From an uncultured Bacteroidales bacterium (GTDB lineage Bacteria > Bacteroidota > Bacteroidia > Bacteroidales > JAADJA01), in NCBI GenBank assembly GCA_964421215.1, contig CAYQWA010000041.1, positions 1-40,708 on the forward strand: 40,708 nucleotides of DNA. Direction: 5' to 3'. Positions 6,318 through 29,589 of the stretch are shown in pieces. The translations under genes were made by a program, and so were the position numbers. Position 1 is the first letter of the stretch, and every line of letters begins with the position of its first letter. Under the pieces are notes generated by a model. The model searched no databases, was not told the DNA's origin, and was given only the letters and a program-made list of their open reading frames with translations.

Positions 6318-6712
6318 GTGGAGCTGGAGGGATTCGAACCCTCGTCCAAACAAGCAGCAAAAGTGCTTTCTACATGCTTAGCTTATTATTGGTTTTCGAA
6401 TACAATCCGGAAAAAAGCACCCAAATTATACCTTATCCCTTTTATCTCATTTTATAACCAGGGTCTTTACAAAACCAGCCTGAAATTATGAGCACCCCGT
6501 AATCAGTCGGAATCAGGCATCTCCTTCTGCGGAATGTCCCGTCACCAGCCCTTGGCCGGCAATAGAGCTAATCTACTAAACTTCGATTAAGCTGCGAGAG
6601 CGTAATTATTTTCGCCAATTAAAAGTTTGAAGATGGTTGATAACGAGCCTTATCTCCAATGCCCGGCATGCTTACAGTTCCACTGACCTTGCTGTCAAAA
6701 CCAGTCAGCCCC
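6318..6712 (-). ncRNA. ssrA: tmRNA (ssrA), about 395 nt, encoding the tag peptide GENNYALAA.
   Basis: The minus-strand 5' end is GGGGCTGACTGGTTTTGACAGC... (rc of 6691-6712). The 3' end is ...GGACGAGGGTTCGAATCCCTCCAGCTCCAC, i.e. T-arm GGTTCGAATCC plus acceptor CAGCTCC-A; the CCA is not fully encoded. The tag reading frame is GGC GAA AAT AAT TAC GCT CTC GCA GCT TAA (rc of 6587-6616) = G-E-N-N-Y-A-L-A-A-stop, the Bacteroidota-type proteolysis tag. Confidence 0.92.
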
Positions 6713-6961: not shown

Positions 6962-8125
6962 TTATTTCATCAGCGGCTGCGCAAACCGTACAACATCCTC
7001 ACCGGTCACCTGGTTGTCGCACAATATGGCTAAACGCTCCACTACATTTCGTAGTTCCCTGATGTTTCCGGTCCAGGGCATCTTCTGCATTTCCTCGATC
7101 GCATCATCTGTAAAGGGAATAAATGGCCTGCCGTTGTTTTCGCATGTCAATTGCATAAAGTGTTCAGCCAGCAATGGAATATCATCGTTACGTTCCCTTA
7201 ATGCAGGTACATGGATTAAGATTACACTCAGGCGATGATAAAGATCCTCCCTGAATTTTTCATTCTGAATCTCTTTTTTCAGATTTTTATTTGTTGCAGC
7301 CAAAACACGAACATCTACAGCAATGTCCTTTTCACCACCAACCCTTGTGATCTTATTCTCTTGCAGTGCACGCAATACCTTTGCCTGTGCGGATAAACTC
7401 ATATCGCCTATTTCATCCAGGAATATAGTTCCACCATGTGCCTGTTCGAAATCACCTTTACGTTGTTTGATGGCAGAAGTAAAAGAGCCTTTTTCATGAC
7501 CAAACAATTGGGATTCGATCAACTCAGAGGGTATAGCAGCACAGTTTACCTCGATAAAAGGAGCATGAGAACGGTTGCTTTTTTCATGAAGCCAGCGGGC
7601 CACTAGCTCTTTCCCCGTTCCGTTTTCTCCGGTGATCAAAACCCTGGCATCAGTAGGGGAAACCCTTTCAATCATATCTTTGATAGAGGATATGGCTTCC
7701 GACTCGCCAACCATTTCCCAGGATTGACTGACCTGCTTTTTTAATTTCTTGGTTTCAGTGATAAGGGTGGATTTGTCCATGGCGTTCCTGATGGTGATCA
7801 GCAACCTGTTCAGATCCGGCGGCTTTTCAATATAGTCATAGGCTCCCTTTTTGATTGATTCAACAGCTGTTTCTATGGTTCCGTGTCCGGAAATCATAAT
7901 GATAGGGCTGTCGGTAATTTGCAATGCCTTTTCAAGCACCTCCATCCCGTCAATGCCAGGCATTTTTATATCACACAGAATTACATCGTATGTTGTTTCT
8001 TTGATCTTCTCCAGCGCGACTTCTCCATTCTCTGCCTGATCAACTTTGTATTTTTCATTGCTCAGGATATCATCCAGCGTATTCCGGATGCTCCGTTCAT
8101 CATCTATTATTAAAATATGAGCCAT
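6962..8125 (-). CDS. Sigma-54-dependent response regulator (NtrC family): receiver plus AAA+ sigma-54 activator domain, with no C-terminal HTH.
   Basis: REC domain (ILIIDDERSIRN..DVILCDIKMPGIDGMEVL). Walker A GENGTGKE. A GSFTSA variant of GAFTGA. ..GNIRELRNVVERLAIL. The protein ends 18 aa after the AAA+ domain. Confidence 0.85.
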   Translation of the reverse strand: MAHILIIDDERSIRNTLDDILSNEKYKVDQAENGEVALEKIKETTYDVILCDIKMPGIDGMEVLEKALQITDSPIIMISGHGTIETAVESIKKGAYDYIEKPPDLNRLLITIRNAMDKSTLITETKKLKKQVSQSWEMVGESEAISSIKDMIERVSPTDARVLITGENGTGKELVARWLHEKSNRSHAPFIEVNCAAIPSELIESQLFGHEKGSFTSAIKQRKGDFEQAHGGTIFLDEIGDMSLSAQAKVLRALQENKITRVGGEKDIAVDVRVLAATNKNLKKEIQNEKFREDLYHRLSVILIHVPALRERNDDIPLLAEHFMQLTCENNGRPFIPFTDDAIEEMQKMPWTGNIRELRNVVERLAILCDNQVTGEDVVRFAQPLMK

Positions 8126-8163
8126 TTGCCTTTATTGGTATTAATATATGATCACTCAAATCG

Positions 8164-8214
8164 ACATGAAAATTTTCATGCAAATATATACAATCTGCAT
8201 GAAAATTTTCATGC
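8164..8214. promoter_or_regulatory. Two 18-bp palindromic candidate operators, aCATGAAAATTTTCATGc at 8164-8181 and GCATGAAAATTTTCATGC at 8197-8214, 33 bp centre to centre.
   Basis: Read directly from the sequence. Each has a perfect 16-bp dyad. They lie in the divergent region between the EBP gene (minus, start 8125) and the lolD-like gene (plus, start 8296). A CAAATATA (rc TATATTTG) -7 box for the minus-strand gene sits between them at 8181-8188. Confidence 0.5.
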
Positions 8215-8269
8215 GTGATTCCCGCTGACCTGTTAGTACAATCAATTTACAGAAGAAAGATAAAAATTT

Positions 8270-8277
8270 TATCTTTG
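8270..8277 (+). promoter_or_regulatory. Bacteroidota-type -7 promoter element TATCTTTG.
   Basis: Matches the TAnnTTTG consensus, 19 nt upstream of the ATG at 8296. Confidence 0.35.
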
Positions 8278-8295
8278 CTCCATTAATTCAATTGT

Positions 8296-8958
8296 GTGAT
8301 CAGAACAGAAAATATTCGAAAATCCTTTGGGTCGTTGGAAGTATTAAAAGGGATCGACCTTGAGATAAAGAAAGGAGAGGTTGTTTCTATTGTTGGTGCC
8401 TCAGGAGCAGGGAAATCCACATTACTTCATATACTGGGAACACTTGACAAGCCAGACTCCGGCGATGTGTTTATAAGTGATACGAATGTGAATGTGTTAA
8501 ACGATAACAGGATATCAGAATTCCGGAACAGCCAGATTGGTTTTGTGTTTCAATTCCACCATTTATTGCCTGAATTTACTGCACTGGAAAATGTTTGTAT
8601 TCCTGCACTAATTGCAAGAAAATCAAAAACAAAGGCAAATGAAATGGCCAGAAAATTACTGGATTATCTAAACCTTAGCAACAGGCTGGATCATAAACCA
8701 TCTGAGTTATCCGGCGGAGAACAGCAGAGGGTGGCAGTGGCCAGGGCACTGGTTAATGAACCTGCGGTGGTACTTGCTGATGAACCCTCCGGTAACCTTG
8801 ATTCGAATTCTGCTGTTGAATTGCACAAACTTTTTTTTAATTTGCGTGATGAAATGGATCAGACCTTTATTATTGTAACGCATAACAAGGATCTGGCAGA
8901 TATGGCCGATAGAAAACTGACCATTTCAGATGGAATTATAGTCAATGGAAAACCTTAA
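8296..8958 (+). CDS. lolD: ABC transporter ATP-binding protein (LolD/MacB-type, lipoprotein-releasing system ATPase-like).
   Basis: Walker [11 protein letters not shown]-loop, ABC signature [15 protein letters not shown], Walker B VVLADEP, 220 aa. The gene symbol is by family resemblance only. Confidence 0.8.
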
Positions 8959-9021
8959 TACTATTTTAATTTTATCAACGTTAATTAATCTTTATCAGGT
9001 GTTGTAAATTATTGTTTTTGT

Positions 9022-21679: not shown

Positions 21680-24496
21680 TTATAAATTGTATGTAGCCAA
21701 TGCCTCTCTGGCTCTTTTTGCAGGTTTGAAGTTCACATCGGCATCCTTCCAAATTTCATTTGCCAGTTTTAAATGCATAAGTGCTTTGTCGATATTTCCT
21801 GATTCTTTAAACAGTAAATATGCTTCAAAATGAGCTTTTGGACTAAATGGGTAGTAATTCAGTGCGGCTTCCAGATTTTTTTTAGCTTTTCTGAGATTTC
21901 CTGCCTTACGTTCACACCTTGCCAGATTTCGGTAGGTTTGTTTTCCCGAAGGTGTTTTTTCCAGAAACAAGTTGAATTGTTCAACCGCTGTTTCATAATC
22001 TTTTTTGAATTCAGCAATAAAACCTTCCACATAGCATATATTGCTTAACAACATTTCTTCTCCAAATCCAATGGCCAGTTCACGGGCATCACTGATAAAT
22101 GGTTCCGCCATTTCAGCGCTGTCCACAAATATATAATAGAACATATATCCGTAAGCCGCGGCCTTATCCACCGGAGGTTCAAGCAATTTTTCGTTTATTT
22201 GAATTACTTCAAATGCTGTCTTTTCATTTCCTGCAATAATGTATTTGTTAACGTTGAACATCTTGATCACTGCAATATTCAGAGGGTTATAAATTTTTGA
22301 AGCACCGTCAAGATATTTTAAATAGTATTGAAGGGATAAGGTGGCTTTACCCAGGAATTCATAATAATCAGATAAAGCATTAAGTACTGAAATGCTATCC
22401 TGTATGGTGGGGCATTGACTCAGTAAGTTATGATGTTGCTGTTCAAGCTGATCAAAAATCCCGAGACGCTGGTCTATCGTAAGCCGGGTAAGTGCCAGAG
22501 AAATATCCCGTGGCTCCAGGATCAACGCTTTATCAATGTTTTCCAATGCTTTATCAAACACAGCCATTTCCAGGTATAGTTCCGATAAACAACTGTATCC
22601 TTTGTAATCATCGGGGTGAATCCTAACGTACTGATCATAAGAAATCATTGCAGAATCTGTAATTCCCAAAGCTGTATATAGATCTCCTATATACCTGATG
22701 TATTTACTTTGATCAGGATCAAGCTGTAGAATGGCTTCATATTCTTTAATTGACGCTCTGAACATGTTTTTATACTGGTACCTTGTGGCAAGCATATCAT
22801 GCGCTTCAATATCTTCGTGGAATAATTCGGTCCACATCTTCAGAACTGCGATGGCTTTATCTGATTCCTGTTTTAATGTATAGTAGAAGAATTTTGTAAT
22901 GAATTGCATCCTTTCAGGTAGATTATAGATGATTTTCATAACTTCATTTACTTCAGCTTCTGCTTTGGAAAAATTATTGTTGTTAAAATAATAGTCCATG
23001 AGCTTTACACGTGCAAGAGCAAAATTTGGATCCTCATGCAAGGCTGATTCAATATGGGCTATAGCTTTATCCCAGTTTTTGTGTAAAAGGACTTGCATAT
23101 TCCCTTTAGTGTACTGCTCCAGGGCTTTAAATGACTTGGTATAGATCTCCTCAACTGGGAGGTTTTTTGAGTTTTCAATCTGGAAGGGAGGAATTTTTAT
23201 ATCAATTACCAATTGCTCTGTAATTTGATCGATCAGTGATAAAACATTATCCCCTTTTGTGTCAAATGTAGAAACCAGACTTGCATTTTTAGTCTTATAA
23301 ACTTCTGTTTTAAAGACATAAGTTCCATCGTCAAAAGTAAATGTGCCTGTGATAAAATAATTCATGCTGTAGTACTTTGCAATTGAGTGAAGGAGAAGAA
23401 ACGGGGCATCGATACAATGGTCATAGCCGGCCTCTCTGAATTTTTTAGCAAAATCCCTGGCTGAATTGGTTTGTATAAAGGTGTTTTGTGACAGGTCATG
23501 TTGGATCATCGAAGGTATAGCATATTGCAGCCAGTTAAGTTCAGAATTCGTGCTCGAATTATTAAAGAAAAACAATGCGATCTTTTTCCTGAATTCACTT
23601 TTAACAACCGTTCGTTCAATACTCTCTCCATCTTCGCTCTCAAGGTAAATTTTGTGAGTTGTGGCTCCAAGGTCCTTGTCGTTGAATAAGATAATAACAA
23701 GTAGAACAGATAAGAACGCATTGGCTGGTAATCCAAACAACTCAACTTTCGTCCATCTACTTGAGCTCTTTTTTCCATGGAAATAAGAGAGAAGAATTAC
23801 AGCAGGAATAAGTGATAACAATATTGCCCAGGCAAGATCAGCAATATGAGGGGAAAGCATGTTGTTAAAAACAATGGCAGCTACAGCCAGTTTAATGACC
23901 CATGCACTTAATATGTATAAAAGAAGGATTTGAATAACCCTTCGGTTCCATAGATCTTTGAATATAAATCCGATGGACCGGGAACGTTTTTTAGTAATCC
24001 CTTCAATAAACACTTCGAACACTTCCATATAATCCGACATCCCCTTTAACTCTTTCTCACCGAGGGATTGGGTAGTAATATCAGATTTATTAAGGAGCTG
24101 AGCCTTTACATCAGCAGAAACACAAATCCCATTAGGCGGGGCAAGAGGTTCGATGCGGGCTGCAATATTTACTGCGGATCCAAAAACATCTCCCTCTTCG
24201 AAGATAACTTCTCCGATATGAATACCAGCCCGGATGGTTAATTCTTCATCTTTTAAACGGGTTTGAACGTTAATGGCAAAACGAACTGCCTGGAGGGCAC
24301 TGTCAAACATCATCATAAGTCCGTCACCAATTTCTTTAATTACTTCACCACCATAAGATTTAACCAATGGGAAAATAATATCACGCTGGGTTTGCAGCAA
24401 CTGCATGGTTCCCTGTTCGTTTTCTTCCATACGTTTAGTATACCCAACAATGTCGGTGAAAACGATGGCTGCCAGTTTATGCGATTTATCTGACAT
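21680..24496 (-). CDS. Class III adenylate/guanylate cyclase domain - ~3 TM - TPR repeat protein (paralog B, 938 aa).
   Basis: N-terminal CHD motifs: AAIVFTDIVGYTK (metal Asp), GGEVIKEIGDGLMMMF (second Asp), RAGIHIGEVIF..GDVFGSAVNIAARIE. Then three hydrophobic helices. The C-terminal ~550 aa are TPR-like (..ALENIDKALILEPRD.., ..AEPFISDARELAIGFGEEMLL..). Confidence 0.8.
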   Translation of the reverse strand: MSDKSHKLAAIVFTDIVGYTKRMEENEQGTMQLLQTQRDIIFPLVKSYGGEVIKEIGDGLMMMFDSALQAVRFAINVQTRLKDEELTIRAGIHIGEVIFEEGDVFGSAVNIAARIEPLAPPNGICVSADVKAQLLNKSDITTQSLGEKELKGMSDYMEVFEVFIEGITKKRSRSIGFIFKDLWNRRVIQILLLYILSAWVIKLAVAAIVFNNMLSPHIADLAWAILLSLIPAVILLSYFHGKKSSSRWTKVELFGLPANAFLSVLLVIILFNDKDLGATTHKIYLESEDGESIERTVVKSEFRKKIALFFFNNSSTNSELNWLQYAIPSMIQHDLSQNTFIQTNSARDFAKKFREAGYDHCIDAPFLLLHSIAKYYSMNYFITGTFTFDDGTYVFKTEVYKTKNASLVSTFDTKGDNVLSLIDQITEQLVIDIKIPPFQIENSKNLPVEEIYTKSFKALEQYTKGNMQVLLHKNWDKAIAHIESALHEDPNFALARVKLMDYYFNNNNFSKAEAEVNEVMKIIYNLPERMQFITKFFYYTLKQESDKAIAVLKMWTELFHEDIEAHDMLATRYQYKNMFRASIKEYEAILQLDPDQSKYIRYIGDLYTALGITDSAMISYDQYVRIHPDDYKGYSCLSELYLEMAVFDKALENIDKALILEPRDISLALTRLTIDQRLGIFDQLEQQHHNLLSQCPTIQDSISVLNALSDYYEFLGKATLSLQYYLKYLDGASKIYNPLNIAVIKMFNVNKYIIAGNEKTAFEVIQINEKLLEPPVDKAAAYGYMFYYIFVDSAEMAEPFISDARELAIGFGEEMLLSNICYVEGFIAEFKKDYETAVEQFNLFLEKTPSGKQTYRNLARCERKAGNLRKAKKNLEAALNYYPFSPKAHFEAYLLFKESGNIDKALMHLKLANEIWKDADVNFKPAKRAREALATYNL

Positions 24497-24653: not shown

Positions 24654-27476
24654 TTAGACTTCGCCCAGTTCTGCCAATTTCTCTTTCACATCTTCAGCGG
24701 GTTCATATCCTGGATCTGCATCTGTCCAGATATCATTGGCAATTTGCAAATATTCCCGGGCCTTCTTCTCTTCTCCTGATTCAAGGTAGAGCAGTCCGGT
24801 CTCATAGTTGTTTTTAGGATTAAAGGGATCCAGGTCAAGCGGAATCCGGATATGTTCTTCGGCATCCTTAAATTCTCCGAGTTTTCTGTAGCACCTGGCA
24901 ATCCATCGGTGCGTATCCATGTTTGAAGGTTGCATATCAAGAAATTGTTGATAGTAGGTGATGGCTTCGCTGTAATTCTCTGTTATTTCATTGATTCTGC
25001 CATTGGCATAATGGATATTGGCCAGCAATAGATCTTCTCCAAACCCCTCGATCAATGCTTCTGCCTGTTCAATCTCCTGCATTGCTTTTTCAGTATCTTT
25101 TAATTCAATGTATGCAAACAGGTAGCCAAAGGAAGCAATTTTATCAAGAGGAGATTCGAATTTGTTTTCCATGTCCTCCAGTATTTTAAACGCTCTGTCT
25201 TCCTGCCCGGCCACAATATAGTATCCAATCGTAAAGGCTTGATATACAAGGATGTCTTTGGGGGATTTAAACCTGTTCCACAAATTCATTCTTTTTTCGT
25301 GGTAATCGAGTGCTGTCCGGTTCTGTCCTTTCAATCCATAGAATTGGTGCAATGCATGGAAAACGCTGGAACTGTCTTCAGCAGTTTTGCTTGACGCCAG
25401 AATATTATTAAATTCTATCAGGGCATCTTCAAAATCACCTCGTAAAACTTTTATTCTGGCCAGCCTTATCATGATGGATACTTTACTGGATTCTATCAGC
25501 AAAGCTCTGTCGTAATTTTGCTCAGCTTTATCAAAATCACCCAGCCGAATATATAAATCTCCAATTTCACGGAAGGATTTGAAATCACTGGGAAACTTAT
25601 CAGCATAGAGTTTGTAATAAATAAGAGCAGAATCATAATTGCCGGCCTTTTCATAAAGATCTCCTATGCTTCTTAGGTAATTATATTCTTCCGGATCCAG
25701 CTCAAGAATTTTCTTGTACTGTACAATGGCTTCAGCCGATTGACCTTTGTTGATGTATCTTCCTGCGAGCATTGTTCTTCCTTCTGTATCTTCCGGGTAA
25801 AGTTCCACCCACATTTTAACGACGGCATCCGCTTTATCAGGTTCCTGTTTGACCAGGTAGTAAAAGAATTTTACAAAAAACTGGACGGTTTCAGGTAATT
25901 TGTCCAGGTTTTTTTTATCCATGGCCAGCTCCAGGGTTTCCATGGATTTTTCCGCTTGATTTGAACTGAAATAGAAGTTAGCCAGGGAGAGGTATGCAAT
26001 TGCAAAGCCAGGATCTTCTTCAACGGCCTGGTTTAAATATTCAATTCCTTTAACATAGTCGTTTCTTAAAATTTCGCGATTGGCAAAGGCATACAAACGT
26101 AACGCTATTTCTGAACCGGTAAATATATCAGCAATGGGCAGGTCTCTTGTTTCATCGATATGATATCCCGGTATTTCAACATCGTCTTTAACCTGAATAG
26201 AAATTTCATCGATGAGCTTAAAGATATCTTCTCCAGTAAAATTATTTTCTATCAGCAGTTTAGTTGTTTTTGTATCGTAGAGCTTTGTATTTATTGAATA
26301 TACACCGCCTTCAATGGAAAAATCTCCGCTGAGAAAATAATTCAGATGGTAATATTCTGACAAATTGCTCATTAACGACACTGGTAAACCGATTCCATCT
26401 TCATAACCAGCTTCTTCAAGCTTTTTAAAAAATCGCACCGCCGATTGTGAATTGATATAAATGTCCTGAGATAAATCATATTCAATCATGGTAGGGATGG
26501 AATATTGCAACCAGTCCCAGGTTGAATCACCTGAAATGTTTGTTATGTTAAACAGTGCTAAACTTTTCCTGAATTCACTTTTAACTATGGTTCGTTCAAT
26601 CCGGTCTCCATCTTCATTTTCTACGGTTACACTTTGAGCTGTAGCTCCCAGGCTTTTTCCCTGGAACATTAAAACTACCAACAGTAGGGTCATTGCCGCA
26701 TTGGCAGGTAATCCGAAAAGCTCAACTTTTGTCCATCCTTCCTGTCTGCGTTTGTTATGATAATAAGATAGAAGAAAGACTGCGGGCAACAAAGAAAGCA
26801 AAACTACCCAAGCGAGGTCAACCAGATGGGGTGATAAAAGGTATTCTGAAGATATGGCAGCTACAGCCTGTTTGATGATCCATGCACTTATCAGATAACC
26901 AATAATTACATGAACAACTTTCCGTTTCCAAATATCATTAAAGAACCATTTAGCATCTTTTTTCTGCTGGCCGGAGATACCTTCCACGTATACTTCGAAA
27001 ATTTCTACAGGTTGACTGACTCCTTTTAATTCACGCTTGCCTAGCGAAATGGTGGTTATATCAGATTTGTTCCTTAGCTGGCTTTTTACATCTTCCGAAA
27101 TACAAATACCATTGGCGGGTGCCATGGGCTCAATTCTCGCAGCTGTATTTACTGCTGATCCAAAGACATCTCCATCTTCAAAAATTACATCACCAATATG
27201 GATTCCGGCACGGATCGTTAACTCTTCATCCTTTAGCCGGGTTTGTACACTAATTGCAAATCGGACTGCCTGTACAGCACTGGTGAACATCATTAATAAA
27301 CCGTCACCCAATTCTTTAATCACCTCTCCACCATACGACTCAACCATTGGAAATACGATTTCTCGTTGTTGCTGAAGCAGCTGCATGGTTTTCTGCTCAT
27401 TCTCTTCCATACGCTTTGTATAACCAACGATGTCGGTAAATACAATGGCTGCTAATTTGTGCTTTTTATCAGGCAT
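24654..27476 (-). CDS. Class III adenylate/guanylate cyclase domain - ~3 TM - TPR repeat protein (paralog A, 940 aa).
   Basis: Same architecture as 21680-24496. The cyclase domains are about 80% identical (MPDKKHKLAAIVFTDIVGYTKRMEENEQKTMQLLQ..) and the C-terminal regions are more diverged. This is a tandem duplication. Confidence 0.8.
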   Translation of the reverse strand: MPDKKHKLAAIVFTDIVGYTKRMEENEQKTMQLLQQQREIVFPMVESYGGEVIKELGDGLLMMFTSAVQAVRFAISVQTRLKDEELTIRAGIHIGDVIFEDGDVFGSAVNTAARIEPMAPANGICISEDVKSQLRNKSDITTISLGKRELKGVSQPVEIFEVYVEGISGQQKKDAKWFFNDIWKRKVVHVIIGYLISAWIIKQAVAAISSEYLLSPHLVDLAWVVLLSLLPAVFLLSYYHNKRRQEGWTKVELFGLPANAAMTLLLVVLMFQGKSLGATAQSVTVENEDGDRIERTIVKSEFRKSLALFNITNISGDSTWDWLQYSIPTMIEYDLSQDIYINSQSAVRFFKKLEEAGYEDGIGLPVSLMSNLSEYYHLNYFLSGDFSIEGGVYSINTKLYDTKTTKLLIENNFTGEDIFKLIDEISIQVKDDVEIPGYHIDETRDLPIADIFTGSEIALRLYAFANREILRNDYVKGIEYLNQAVEEDPGFAIAYLSLANFYFSSNQAEKSMETLELAMDKKNLDKLPETVQFFVKFFYYLVKQEPDKADAVVKMWVELYPEDTEGRTMLAGRYINKGQSAEAIVQYKKILELDPEEYNYLRSIGDLYEKAGNYDSALIYYKLYADKFPSDFKSFREIGDLYIRLGDFDKAEQNYDRALLIESSKVSIMIRLARIKVLRGDFEDALIEFNNILASSKTAEDSSSVFHALHQFYGLKGQNRTALDYHEKRMNLWNRFKSPKDILVYQAFTIGYYIVAGQEDRAFKILEDMENKFESPLDKIASFGYLFAYIELKDTEKAMQEIEQAEALIEGFGEDLLLANIHYANGRINEITENYSEAITYYQQFLDMQPSNMDTHRWIARCYRKLGEFKDAEEHIRIPLDLDPFNPKNNYETGLLYLESGEEKKAREYLQIANDIWTDADPGYEPAEDVKEKLAELGEV

Positions 27477-27636: not shown

Positions 27637-28329
27637 TCACTCCATCACAAGGATAAACCCGATTCCATGAATATTGTTTATCTGTACCGATTTATCAAGG
27701 CTTAGGTGTTTCCTTAGTTTGGAAATAAACACGTCGAGACTACGGCTATTGAAGTAACTGTCGCTGCCCCAGACCTCATTCAGGATATCTTCCTTTTTCA
27801 GGACTTTATTTTGATTTTGAATAAAGAATTTCAGTAATTCCACTTCACGGGAAGTAAGGTTACGGCTTTCTTTTGGATGTGACAATGTCATGCTGACGGA
27901 ATTGAAAATGTATTCACCAATGGCATACTCCCCTTTACTTTTTTTCGCATTAATGACCTTTCCACGCTTCAAGAATATTTCAATTTTAAGTGCAAGTTCT
28001 TCAATGCTAAAAGGTTTGGTAATGTAGTCGTCCCCACCTACAGTAAGCCCTTCGATCCTGTCTTCCTTCATCGATTTGGCAGAAAGGAACAAAATTGGTA
28101 TGTGCTCGTCGTTTTCCCTGATCTTTTTTGCAAGGGCAAACCCATCCATCTCCGGTAACATCACATCCAGTATACAAAGGTCAAAAGGATTGTCTTCGAA
28201 AACCGATAAGGCCTCTTTTCCATCTTTGCACAAAACAATTTCATACCCTTTGATCTCAAGGTTATCCTTGGTAACATAACTCAGGTAGGGATCATCTTCT
28301 ACATATAATATTTTTGGTTTACTGCTCAT
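27637..28329 (-). CDS. OmpR-family response regulator transcription factor.
   Basis: REC domain (ILYVEDDPYLS..DLCILDVMLPEMDGFALAKKIR) plus a C-terminal winged-helix domain (..REVELLKFF..LKKEDILNEVWG..). The ATG abuts the stop of the upstream kinase (TAAATG). Confidence 0.85.
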   Translation of the reverse strand: MSSKPKILYVEDDPYLSYVTKDNLEIKGYEIVLCKDGKEALSVFEDNPFDLCILDVMLPEMDGFALAKKIRENDEHIPILFLSAKSMKEDRIEGLTVGGDDYITKPFSIEELALKIEIFLKRGKVINAKKSKGEYAIGEYIFNSVSMTLSHPKESRNLTSREVELLKFFIQNQNKVLKKEDILNEVWGSDSYFNSRSLDVFISKLRKHLSLDKSVQINNIHGIGFILVME

Positions 28330-29589
28330 TTAAACTGGAATTTTAATTGAAAATGTGCTGCCCTTTCCTATCTCACTCGATACAGTTATTTGCCATTTAT
28401 GGCTGTCAATAACGTTTTTTACATAATTTAATCCAATACCGAATCCTTTAACATTATGAATATCACCAGTGGGCACTCGAAAAAATTTATTGAAAATCTT
28501 TTTCAGGTATTGTTTTTCTATGCCAATGGCATTGTCTGACACGGAAAGTACAATGCTATGATTGTCAGTTATGGTTGATATTTCAATTTCAGGTTTTCCG
28601 TTGCAATATTTTATTGCATTATCCAGGAGGTTATACAATACATTGGATATATGATGTTTGTCGCCTACGACTAAAGAATGATTAGCTTCAAGAATTAAAG
28701 AAACGCTTCCTTTATTTTCTTCAACAGAATGCTTAAAACCTGCAGTAACCTCCTGAATCAGTTCATGCAGATCGATCTCCTCCTTTTTCAACTTAAATTT
28801 GTTGGTCTCAATACGGGCAAGTTGTAATACTTTATCAATCTGGTGCTCAAGTCGCTTGTTTTGATCTGAAATTATATTGGCATAATTTATAAACCTTTCG
28901 GGATCTTTAGATATTTCTTCTTCAGAGAGCACTCTGGCTGAAATTCCAATGGTTGAAATGGGAGTTTTAAATTCGTGTGTCATGTTGTTGATGAAGTTCT
29001 TCTGGATCTCAGATAACCGCTTTTGCTTGAGTATGACATAGATGGCATAGCCGAAAAATATCACGGCAGTGAATAATACAAGGGAAGATACAAACCAGAT
29101 GTTCATAGTATTTAAAATGAACAGGGTTTTAGACGGGAAACGAATTCCAAAATAATAGGTGAACTCATCGTATTTCTGGAATTTTTTAGTTTCCTGTTCC
29201 TTTCCATTGGAAGTGCTGATATAATTCCCAAACACCATGGCATCTGTTTCACAATCATATATGGCATACTCATAGTCGATGTCCATGTTCCTGAAATCAA
29301 ACTCTGTTTTCAGGTAATGATCCAGTATGCTGGCATCAATGATGTCGTTAATGTCAACAATAAAATAATTGGACGAGATCTGCCGGACTGGATTTTCATT
29401 GGGTAATTCATGACCATTGAAAGCAAGCACTTTTTCAGCTACATTATAGAGGGCAATCTGTACCCGCTGGGTAAATTCCTGCTCCGTAGTGCTGTAGGTC
29501 CGGTTGATCCAGTACAATTGGAACAATATAATACCTATGATGGATATTGATCCAAGAATAACAGCCAGCCTGATGTGATTGTTTTTCAT
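28330..29589 (-). CDS. Sensor histidine kinase with 2 TM helices and a ~140-aa periplasmic domain.
   Basis: HisKA H-box NNMTHEFKTPISTI. HATPase_c motifs (LYNLLDNAIKY; GFGIGLNYVKNVI; GKGSTFSIKIP). Translationally coupled to the regulator. Confidence 0.85.
   Translation of the reverse strand: MKNNHIRLAVILGSISIIGIILFQLYWINRTYSTTEQEFTQRVQIALYNVAEKVLAFNGHELPNENPVRQISSNYFIVDINDIIDASILDHYLKTEFDFRNMDIDYEYAIYDCETDAMVFGNYISTSNGKEQETKKFQKYDEFTYYFGIRFPSKTLFILNTMNIWFVSSLVLFTAVIFFGYAIYVILKQKRLSEIQKNFINNMTHEFKTPISTIGISARVLSEEEISKDPERFINYANIISDQNKRLEHQIDKVLQLARIETNKFKLKKEEIDLHELIQEVTAGFKHSVEENKGSVSLILEANHSLVVGDKHHISNVLYNLLDNAIKYCNGKPEIEISTITDNHSIVLSVSDNAIGIEKQYLKKIFNKFFRVPTGDIHNVKGFGIGLNYVKNVIDSHKWQITVSSEIGKGSTFSIKIPV

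Follow-up and report, generated by a model that had tools for sequence, protein, structure and literature searches.

Genetic Context of the Divergent Spacer

The window analysed here (the whole stretch of DNA, 40.7 kb in length) contains two divergent genes around a short intergenic region. On the minus strand, positions 6962–8125 encode a sigma-54 activator of 387 aa, in which domain and profile matches delineate a REC domain, a sigma-54 AAA+ domain and a lid. The chain stops 13 residues past the lid, and the matches to the NtrC and NtrX profiles end at around position 371–378 of 452–463, ~80 positions short. The initial annotation described this activator (EBP) as devoid of a DNA-binding domain, in agreement with the domain analysis: nothing follows the AAA+ lid, and no HTH is present. 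On the plus strand, positions 8296–8958 encode an ABC ATPase, which is called lolD-like because its match to TIGR02211 (284.8 bits) is under the cut-off of 307.75. It is followed by a gene for a 989-aa TPR protein.

The activator sequence is highly conserved: more than 100 protein clusters share 77–100% identity with it, and the orthologues of 80 GTDB species 69–86%. The genes around it vary, with lolD as the divergent neighbour in just 17 of ~86 loci. Directly 3' of the activator lies a tmRNA gene (6318–6712, minus strand; RF00023, 149 bits) with the tag peptide GENNYALAA. Further along, two adjacent paralogues of ~940 aa (21680–24496 and 24654–27476, both on the minus strand) combine an N-terminal adenylate/guanylate cyclase domain with long TPR arrays and adjoin a pair made of an OmpR-type response regulator and a histidine kinase (27637–29589). 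The DNA-binding regulators found nearby are this OmpR-type protein (27637–28329) and a REC-GerE response regulator, encoded outside the window at ~13 kb from the palindromes described below. No link between either of them and the palindromes was seen. The window holds no gene for a palindrome-binding HTH regulator, a transposase, a RAYT-like protein or a recombinase.

Two Identical Palindromes Frame a Probable Promoter Box

Upstream of the activator, the 16-bp palindrome CATGAAAATTTTCATG is present in two exact copies, which are called the proximal (8165–8180) and the distal (8198–8213) dyad relative to this gene. This pair had already been noticed in the initial annotation and is fully confirmed. 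The copies are offset by 33 bp from start to start, and the region around both reads ...tcgaCATGAAAATTTTCATGcaaatatatacaatctgCATGAAAATTTTCATGcgtg..., in which the distal dyad grows to an 18-bp perfect palindrome, GCATGAAAATTTTCATGC (8197–8214). They are the only perfect 16-bp palindromes of the 40.7-kb window, and no further site with up to three mismatches to CATGAAAATTTTCATG was found in it. Since first-order Markov simulations predict 1.1 perfect 16-bp palindromes per window, one of them would not stand out. A second, identical copy at a distance of 33 bp is not a product of chance, because its probability is only ~160/4^16. The signal is the identical pair, not any single palindrome.

This architecture is rare. 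A search of ~1.05 Mb of related Bacteroidales DNA for perfect palindromes (12 bp or longer) repeated identically within 80 bp gave only one other case, at positions 8958–9011 of locus L018, where GTTGCATGCAAC occurs twice, 42 bp apart. The flanks of that pair are alike (gaaG...Cgtct and gacG...Catct), and short minus-strand ORFs alone cover the region.

The repeated unit is longer than the palindrome itself. It comprises 23 nt, AATC-NN-CATGAAAATTTTCATGC, with 21 of the 23 positions matching between the copies; over the rest of the 33-nt period (10 nt), the copies show no relationship. Seen from the dyads, the core is identical at 17/17 positions and the adjoining flank at 4/6 on one side, after which the similarity ends. 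The copies can also pair with each other, forming 21-nt arms of 95% complementarity around a 7-nt loop. Between them lies CAAATATA (8181–8188), which reads TATATTTG on the minus strand, a flawless TAnnTTTG box of the kind found at the -7 position of Bacteroidetes sigma-A promoters.

All seven same-species contigs that were retrieved, independently assembled from seven samples and drawn from three sources (JGI, ENA and Logan), carry the dyads, which excludes an assembly artefact. Apart from one divergent contig end, each differs from the window by 0–2 SNPs, a number too small for population variation to show constraint. One of these contigs, the low-coverage L086, has two differences in 1587 nt, one of them a T-to-A change inside the distal dyad (position 161, window 8199; CATGAAAATTTTCAAG). 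Either a sequencing error or a genuine, palindrome-breaking variant may account for this change.

Short ORFs cross both dyads, MKIFMQIYTICMKIFMRDSR on the plus strand (8166–8228) and MKIFMQIVYICMKIFMSI on the minus strand (8212–8156). Both strands stay open since ATGAAAATTTTCATG translates to M-K-I-F-M and the 33-nt period equals 11 codons, and the symmetry is the probable origin of these ORFs. Only if an older promoter, described below, were still in use would the one on the minus strand be an upstream ORF.

The Palindromes Lie in a Lineage-Specific Insert

For comparison, 80 orthologous activator loci were collected from GTDB species genomes, the source species not being among them, and supplemented with the closest metagenomic relatives (88–90% protein identity). 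The initial annotation had proposed footprinting of the orthologous intergenic regions, and here the dyads proved to be absent from every region examined: from 16 of the 16 syntenic lolD/activator loci and from ~70 further orthologous loci. Neither the 80 orthologous loci nor the closest metagenomic relatives contain CATG-N8-CATG upstream of the activator gene. The dyads are also missing from the sister genome GCA_021740645.1.

Ten of the syntenic relatives (L001, L002, L005, L006, L008, L068, L087, L089, L241 and L242) possess a compact spacer of 63–74 nt, built on a 23-bp core palindrome, CAAAGATAAAATATTTATCTTTG (or CAAAGGTA on the lolD side), whose counterpart in the window lies at 8255–8278. 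This core consists of two Bacteroidetes sigma-A -7 boxes (TAnnTTTG) placed back to back. As the two boxes are 7 nt apart, the divergent promoters overlap fully in the compact spacers. The palindrome CAAAGATAAAATATTTATCTTTG could itself be an operator. On the lolD side, the box is kept in 16/16 syntenic loci at ~20 nt from the start; in the window, it corresponds to TATCTTTG (8270–8277, plus strand), with a predicted transcription start at ~8282 and a 14-nt leader to the GTG at 8296. On the activator side, an intact TAnnTTTG is located 19–53 nt before the ATG in 15 of the 16, L012 having none.

The spacer is expanded to 135–544 nt in six lineages (L003, L007, L010, L011, L012 and L244), by sequences that are mutually unrelated. 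Five of these have their additional sequence located between the -7 boxes; the exception is L012, which lacks the intact activator-side box. The L244 spacer has its own small GC-rich hairpin, CCTGCCT-N7-AGGCAGG. Within 260 nt upstream of the orthologous activator, tandem repeats occur in L009, L024, L034, L044 and L062 (caaagct x5, attacga x4, ggatttrgg runs and gactggc x4). The upstream region of this gene is a hot-spot for repeat expansion.

The window species alone has its extra DNA downstream of the old activator-side box, and in it alone this box is mutated (G to C). Compared with sister species, the alignment places ~100 additional nt somewhere within 8126–8254, the divergence of the leader between species being too great to fix exact boundaries. 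No flanking target-site duplication is evident. The old box, TATCTTTC (8255–8262, minus strand; alignment A1), is without its final G, which is present in 9/9 aligned relatives (A1: G44, at least 90% conserved, with the window as the exception), and it now lies 129 nt from the ATG, versus typically ~30 nt. These data demonstrate an insertion that is specific to one marine Bacteroidales species.

The core of the insert is a nested inverted repeat (8149–8231, minus strand), recognized by inverted-repeat search, folding and alignment. Both dyads together make up a 22-bp hairpin, surrounded by the outer helices GGUCA/UGAUC and GAAUC/GAUUU. The symmetry outside the dyads is weak, as it consists of these two 5-bp helices, G-U pairs included. 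The minus-strand leader that would begin at the old promoter reaches -38.3 kcal/mol (z -4.5) when folded as RNA, with none of 200 shuffled sequences being as stable, and the core folded as single-stranded DNA reaches -19 kcal/mol (z -6.7). The hairpin stops 40 nt short of the start codon and leaves it unoccluded. An intrinsic terminator was also considered and rejected, as no terminator-like site is present.

Probable Replacement of the Activator Promoter

On the activator strand, the sole intact TAnnTTTG upstream of the gene is TATATTTG (8188–8181), 55 nt from the ATG. The candidate -7 box that had been placed exactly between the dyads is thereby borne out. The TAnnTTTG box occupies -12 to -5 in the start-site maps of Flavobacterium (PMC9723704). 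From the position of this box, the activator transcript is predicted to start at ~8176, with a leader of 51 nt. Together with the decay of the old box, this leads to the strong inference that the box in the insert took over as the activator promoter. On this view, the dyads belong to a promoter replacement of local character, and they do not represent a regulatory element shared with the relatives.

With these predicted starts, the dyads would occupy -37 to -22 (distal) and -4 to +12 (proximal) of the new activator promoter, the latter covering the start itself, and -84 to -69 and -117 to -102, respectively, relative to lolD. The repressor geometry suggested in the initial annotation, with dyads on the -33 region and on the start, holds at these predicted positions, provided that the new promoter is the active one. 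Both dyads overlap the core promoter or start site predicted for the activator, which corresponds to the geometry of an operator pair.

The comparison yields the following course of events. About 100 nt of strongly self-complementary DNA entered the short leader of the activator and shifted the ancestral -7 box to ~130 nt from the ATG, after which this box lost its otherwise invariant G. The insert contains the perfect -7 box TATATTTG with identical palindromes of 16–18 bp placed symmetrically on both sides. Transcription of the activator would now begin at ~8176. Separated by 33 bp, or ~3.1 turns, the palindromes would share one face of the DNA, one at the -33 region and one at the start. They might form a putative operator pair for a dimeric DNA-binding repressor with its gene at some other place in the genome, whose cooperative binding would shut out RNA polymerase. 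The lolD promoter would be unaltered, and would now lie ~106 nt from the activator start, with which it formerly overlapped fully.

Searches for Further Copies

The DNA of the source genome available for scanning amounts to 50.7 kb, an estimated ~1–2% of the genome, consisting of the window and 10 kb that adjoin it in one direction, the contig stopping in the other. It contains no other dyad site with up to three mismatches, and none with up to one mismatch is present in ~0.9 Mb of the loci of related species. When the insert was compared by blastn with the window, the related loci (~1 Mb), phages and plasmids, nothing extended past the seeded 16-mer.

The exact 16-mer itself has 30 single matches in viral contigs and at least 120 in metagenome contigs. 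Among the matches listed, the flanks are unrelated and many sites lie inside genes (ATG AAA ATT TTC ATG = MKIFM). Not one of the 150 matches listed from viral and metagenome contigs is a twin site, and none of those listed comes from the source samples. They are chance background and say nothing about the source genome. Literature searches with TGAAAATTTTCA retrieved unrelated papers only, and those on sigma-54, Bacteroidetes and lolD returned nothing useful.

The Dyads as Candidate Repressor Operators

It is tentatively proposed, at somewhat less than even confidence, that a lineage-specific insert supplies the promoter of the activator and that its dyads are candidate repressor operators. 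In favour of operators are the perfect dyad symmetry of a size suited to an HTH dimer, the helical phasing, and the fact that the cores are identical while their flanks have diverged. The overlap with the sole intact promoter, the rarity of the architecture and the inability of the adjacent activator to bind DNA point in the same direction. On the other hand, selected operators are usually imperfect, and four half-sites that are identical and perfectly symmetric would rather be expected from a recent duplication or template switch. No cognate regulator was found nearby, no second site was detected in the 50.7 kb of the source genome, and the orthologous regions show no conservation.

Paired palindromic repressor operators over a promoter in a divergent intergenic region are exemplified by tetO1 and tetO2 of Tn10, the targets of TetR. 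The dyads resemble them in being near-identical palindromes of HTH-dimer size, ~30 bp apart from centre to centre, located over a core promoter in a divergent spacer. Unlike the tet arrangement, no cognate regulator gene adjoins them, they cover one divergent promoter and leave the other free, and the putative sites are perfectly identical and species-specific. Another parallel is provided by the NrdR-box pairs, which Rodionov and Gelfand reportedly described in 2005 as two 16-bp palindromes 31–32 bp apart over nrd promoters. The architecture is similar here, with two 16-bp palindromes three helical turns apart on a promoter, but the sequence is unrelated to the consensus acaCwAtATaTwGtgt. In addition, the downstream genes (the activator and lolD) do not encode a ribonucleotide reductase, and NrdR boxes are widely conserved, unlike the dyad pair. 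An NrdR box pair was therefore rejected, given the lack of a consensus match and of adjoining nrd genes. To our knowledge, none of the motifs of Rex, ArgR, CodY, cre/LacI, FL11/Lrp and NarL (7-2-7) fits in both sequence and spacing. Some motifs of this set share a TGAA..TTCA core with the dyads, from which no membership is claimed.

Alternative Interpretations

The closest competitor of the operator reading, which we consider only a little less likely, is a selfish or neutral palindromic insertion, either a MITE-, REPIN- or Correia-like element or a quasipalindrome duplication by template switching. The dyads would then be hairpin arms without a specific binding protein, and the -7 box of the insert would drive the gene by accident or have been selected after the insertion. 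What was found is indeed a discrete insertion, ~100 extra nt with nested repeats, present here and absent from all sister lineages, and its symmetry extends beyond the dyads into the 21-nt arms and the outer helices, with strong folds as RNA and as DNA. The identity of all four half-sites fits templated copying. The independent expansion of the spacer in six other lineages, together with the simple repeats gathered upstream of the EBP gene elsewhere, also favours this explanation, as do the species-specificity of the pair and the lack of a second site in the 50.7 kb and of a regulator nearby.

The Correia elements of Neisseria, ERIC sequences and REPINs are promoter-creating palindromic repeats that are defined by their multi-copy status. 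The present insert shares with them a hairpin-forming intergenic segment of ~80–105 nt that brings a promoter, and a long hairpin if it is transcribed. It differs from these families in being single-copy in the 50.7 kb and in related DNA, in having no evident target duplication and in showing no similarity to a known element. Against a mobile element, neither a further copy nor any piece of the insert turned up in the 50.7 kb of the source genome, in the ~1 Mb of loci from relatives or among the phages and plasmids, and no twin was seen among the 150 exact 16-mer matches listed from viral and metagenome contigs. A target-site duplication is not definable, the window has no transposase or RAYT-like gene, and the flanks of the copies have diverged while the cores have not. 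The fallback of the initial annotation, a fortuitous AT-rich palindrome, does not account for the pair either, which sits in a discrete insertion confined to one lineage.

An RNA element is unlikely. In that case the mRNA would still start from the old promoter (~8250), and the dyads would form a hairpin in the 5'-UTR that sets stability or processing, for example as a target of RNase III. The 22-bp stem and the exceptional stability of the leader (-38.3 kcal/mol, equalled by 0/200 shuffles) would suit this role, and the old box is off consensus at one position only. That position, however, is the otherwise invariant G of the box, and the start codon, which follows the end of the hairpin after 40 nt, is not masked. 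No Rfam family matches at its gathering score; the only hits are to miRNA-precursor hairpins, at up to 27 bits against cut-offs of 70–230. The lack of conservation, and therefore of covariation, also weakens this explanation, as does the presence of a perfect -7 box in the hairpin loop.

A purely structural effect is still less probable. The core of each dyad, GAAAATTTTC (8169–8178 and 8202–8211), is a sequence that we take to be the A4T4 decamer, which Hagerman is said to have established in 1986 as classic intrinsically bent DNA. The putative curvature from in-phase copies beside the -7 box might tune the promoter or draw nucleoid proteins to it, without a sequence-specific regulator. As read from the sequence, the A4T4 tracts are 33 bp apart and in phase on either side of the box, and curvature is compatible with the evidence for promoter replacement. 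It leaves the identical, symmetric CATG ends unexplained, and two tracts would produce only a modest bend.

The initial annotation also considered an activator or enhancer geometry for lolD and compared the dyads with NtrC-type enhancers. An upstream activating sequence of this type for a sigma-54 promoter of lolD or of the activator is now highly improbable. The tandem dyads are indeed three helical turns apart (33 bp) and 69–117 bp upstream of the predicted lolD start, and they recall the enhancer of glnAp2, where two dyads ~32–33 bp apart lie ~70–120 bp upstream of the gene start. The explanation fails because no sigma-54 promoter was found: positions 8126–8295 contain, within two mismatches, no match to the -24/-12 promoter (TGGCAC-N5-TTGCW) that would be expected ~80–150 bp downstream of such an enhancer, and the plus strand has no GG between 8214 and 8295. 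Over the whole window, the 18 matches obtained, versus 19.5 expected, are at chance level. The lolD promoter has an ordinary sigma-A -7 box that is conserved in species without dyads. Unlike at glnAp2, the dyads are not conserved, and the neighbouring activator lacks the C-terminal HTH of a cognate enhancer-binding protein.

An invertible, phase-variable promoter as in Bacteroides, to which a -7 box with 21-nt inverted repeats on both sides bears some resemblance, has next to no likelihood and was rejected on account of the single orientation in 7/7 same-species contigs, the 17-nt segment that separates the dyads, much shorter than a recombinase could invert, and the lack of a recombinase gene in the window. 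Such promoters are common in Bacteroidales (PMC4747536).

Biological Significance

The locus is a new instance of already known kinds of things. It is quite improbable, though conceivable, that the unit of dyad, -7 box and dyad represents a promoter-operator cassette that is portable, or else a palindromic mobile element with a promoter of its own, undescribed so far in Bacteroidales, which would have taken the place of the native promoter in front of this strongly conserved sigma-54 activator devoid of a DNA-binding domain.

If the dyads are merely a palindromic insertion, they call for caution, since striking perfect dyads at a promoter would need comparative support before being labelled as operators. 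If they are operators, the locus would be a clean natural case of promoter turnover, in which ancient overlapping divergent promoters were split by an insert and the old promoter decayed. A conserved global activator would then have gained a new, species-specific input, a useful illustration rather than a new principle.
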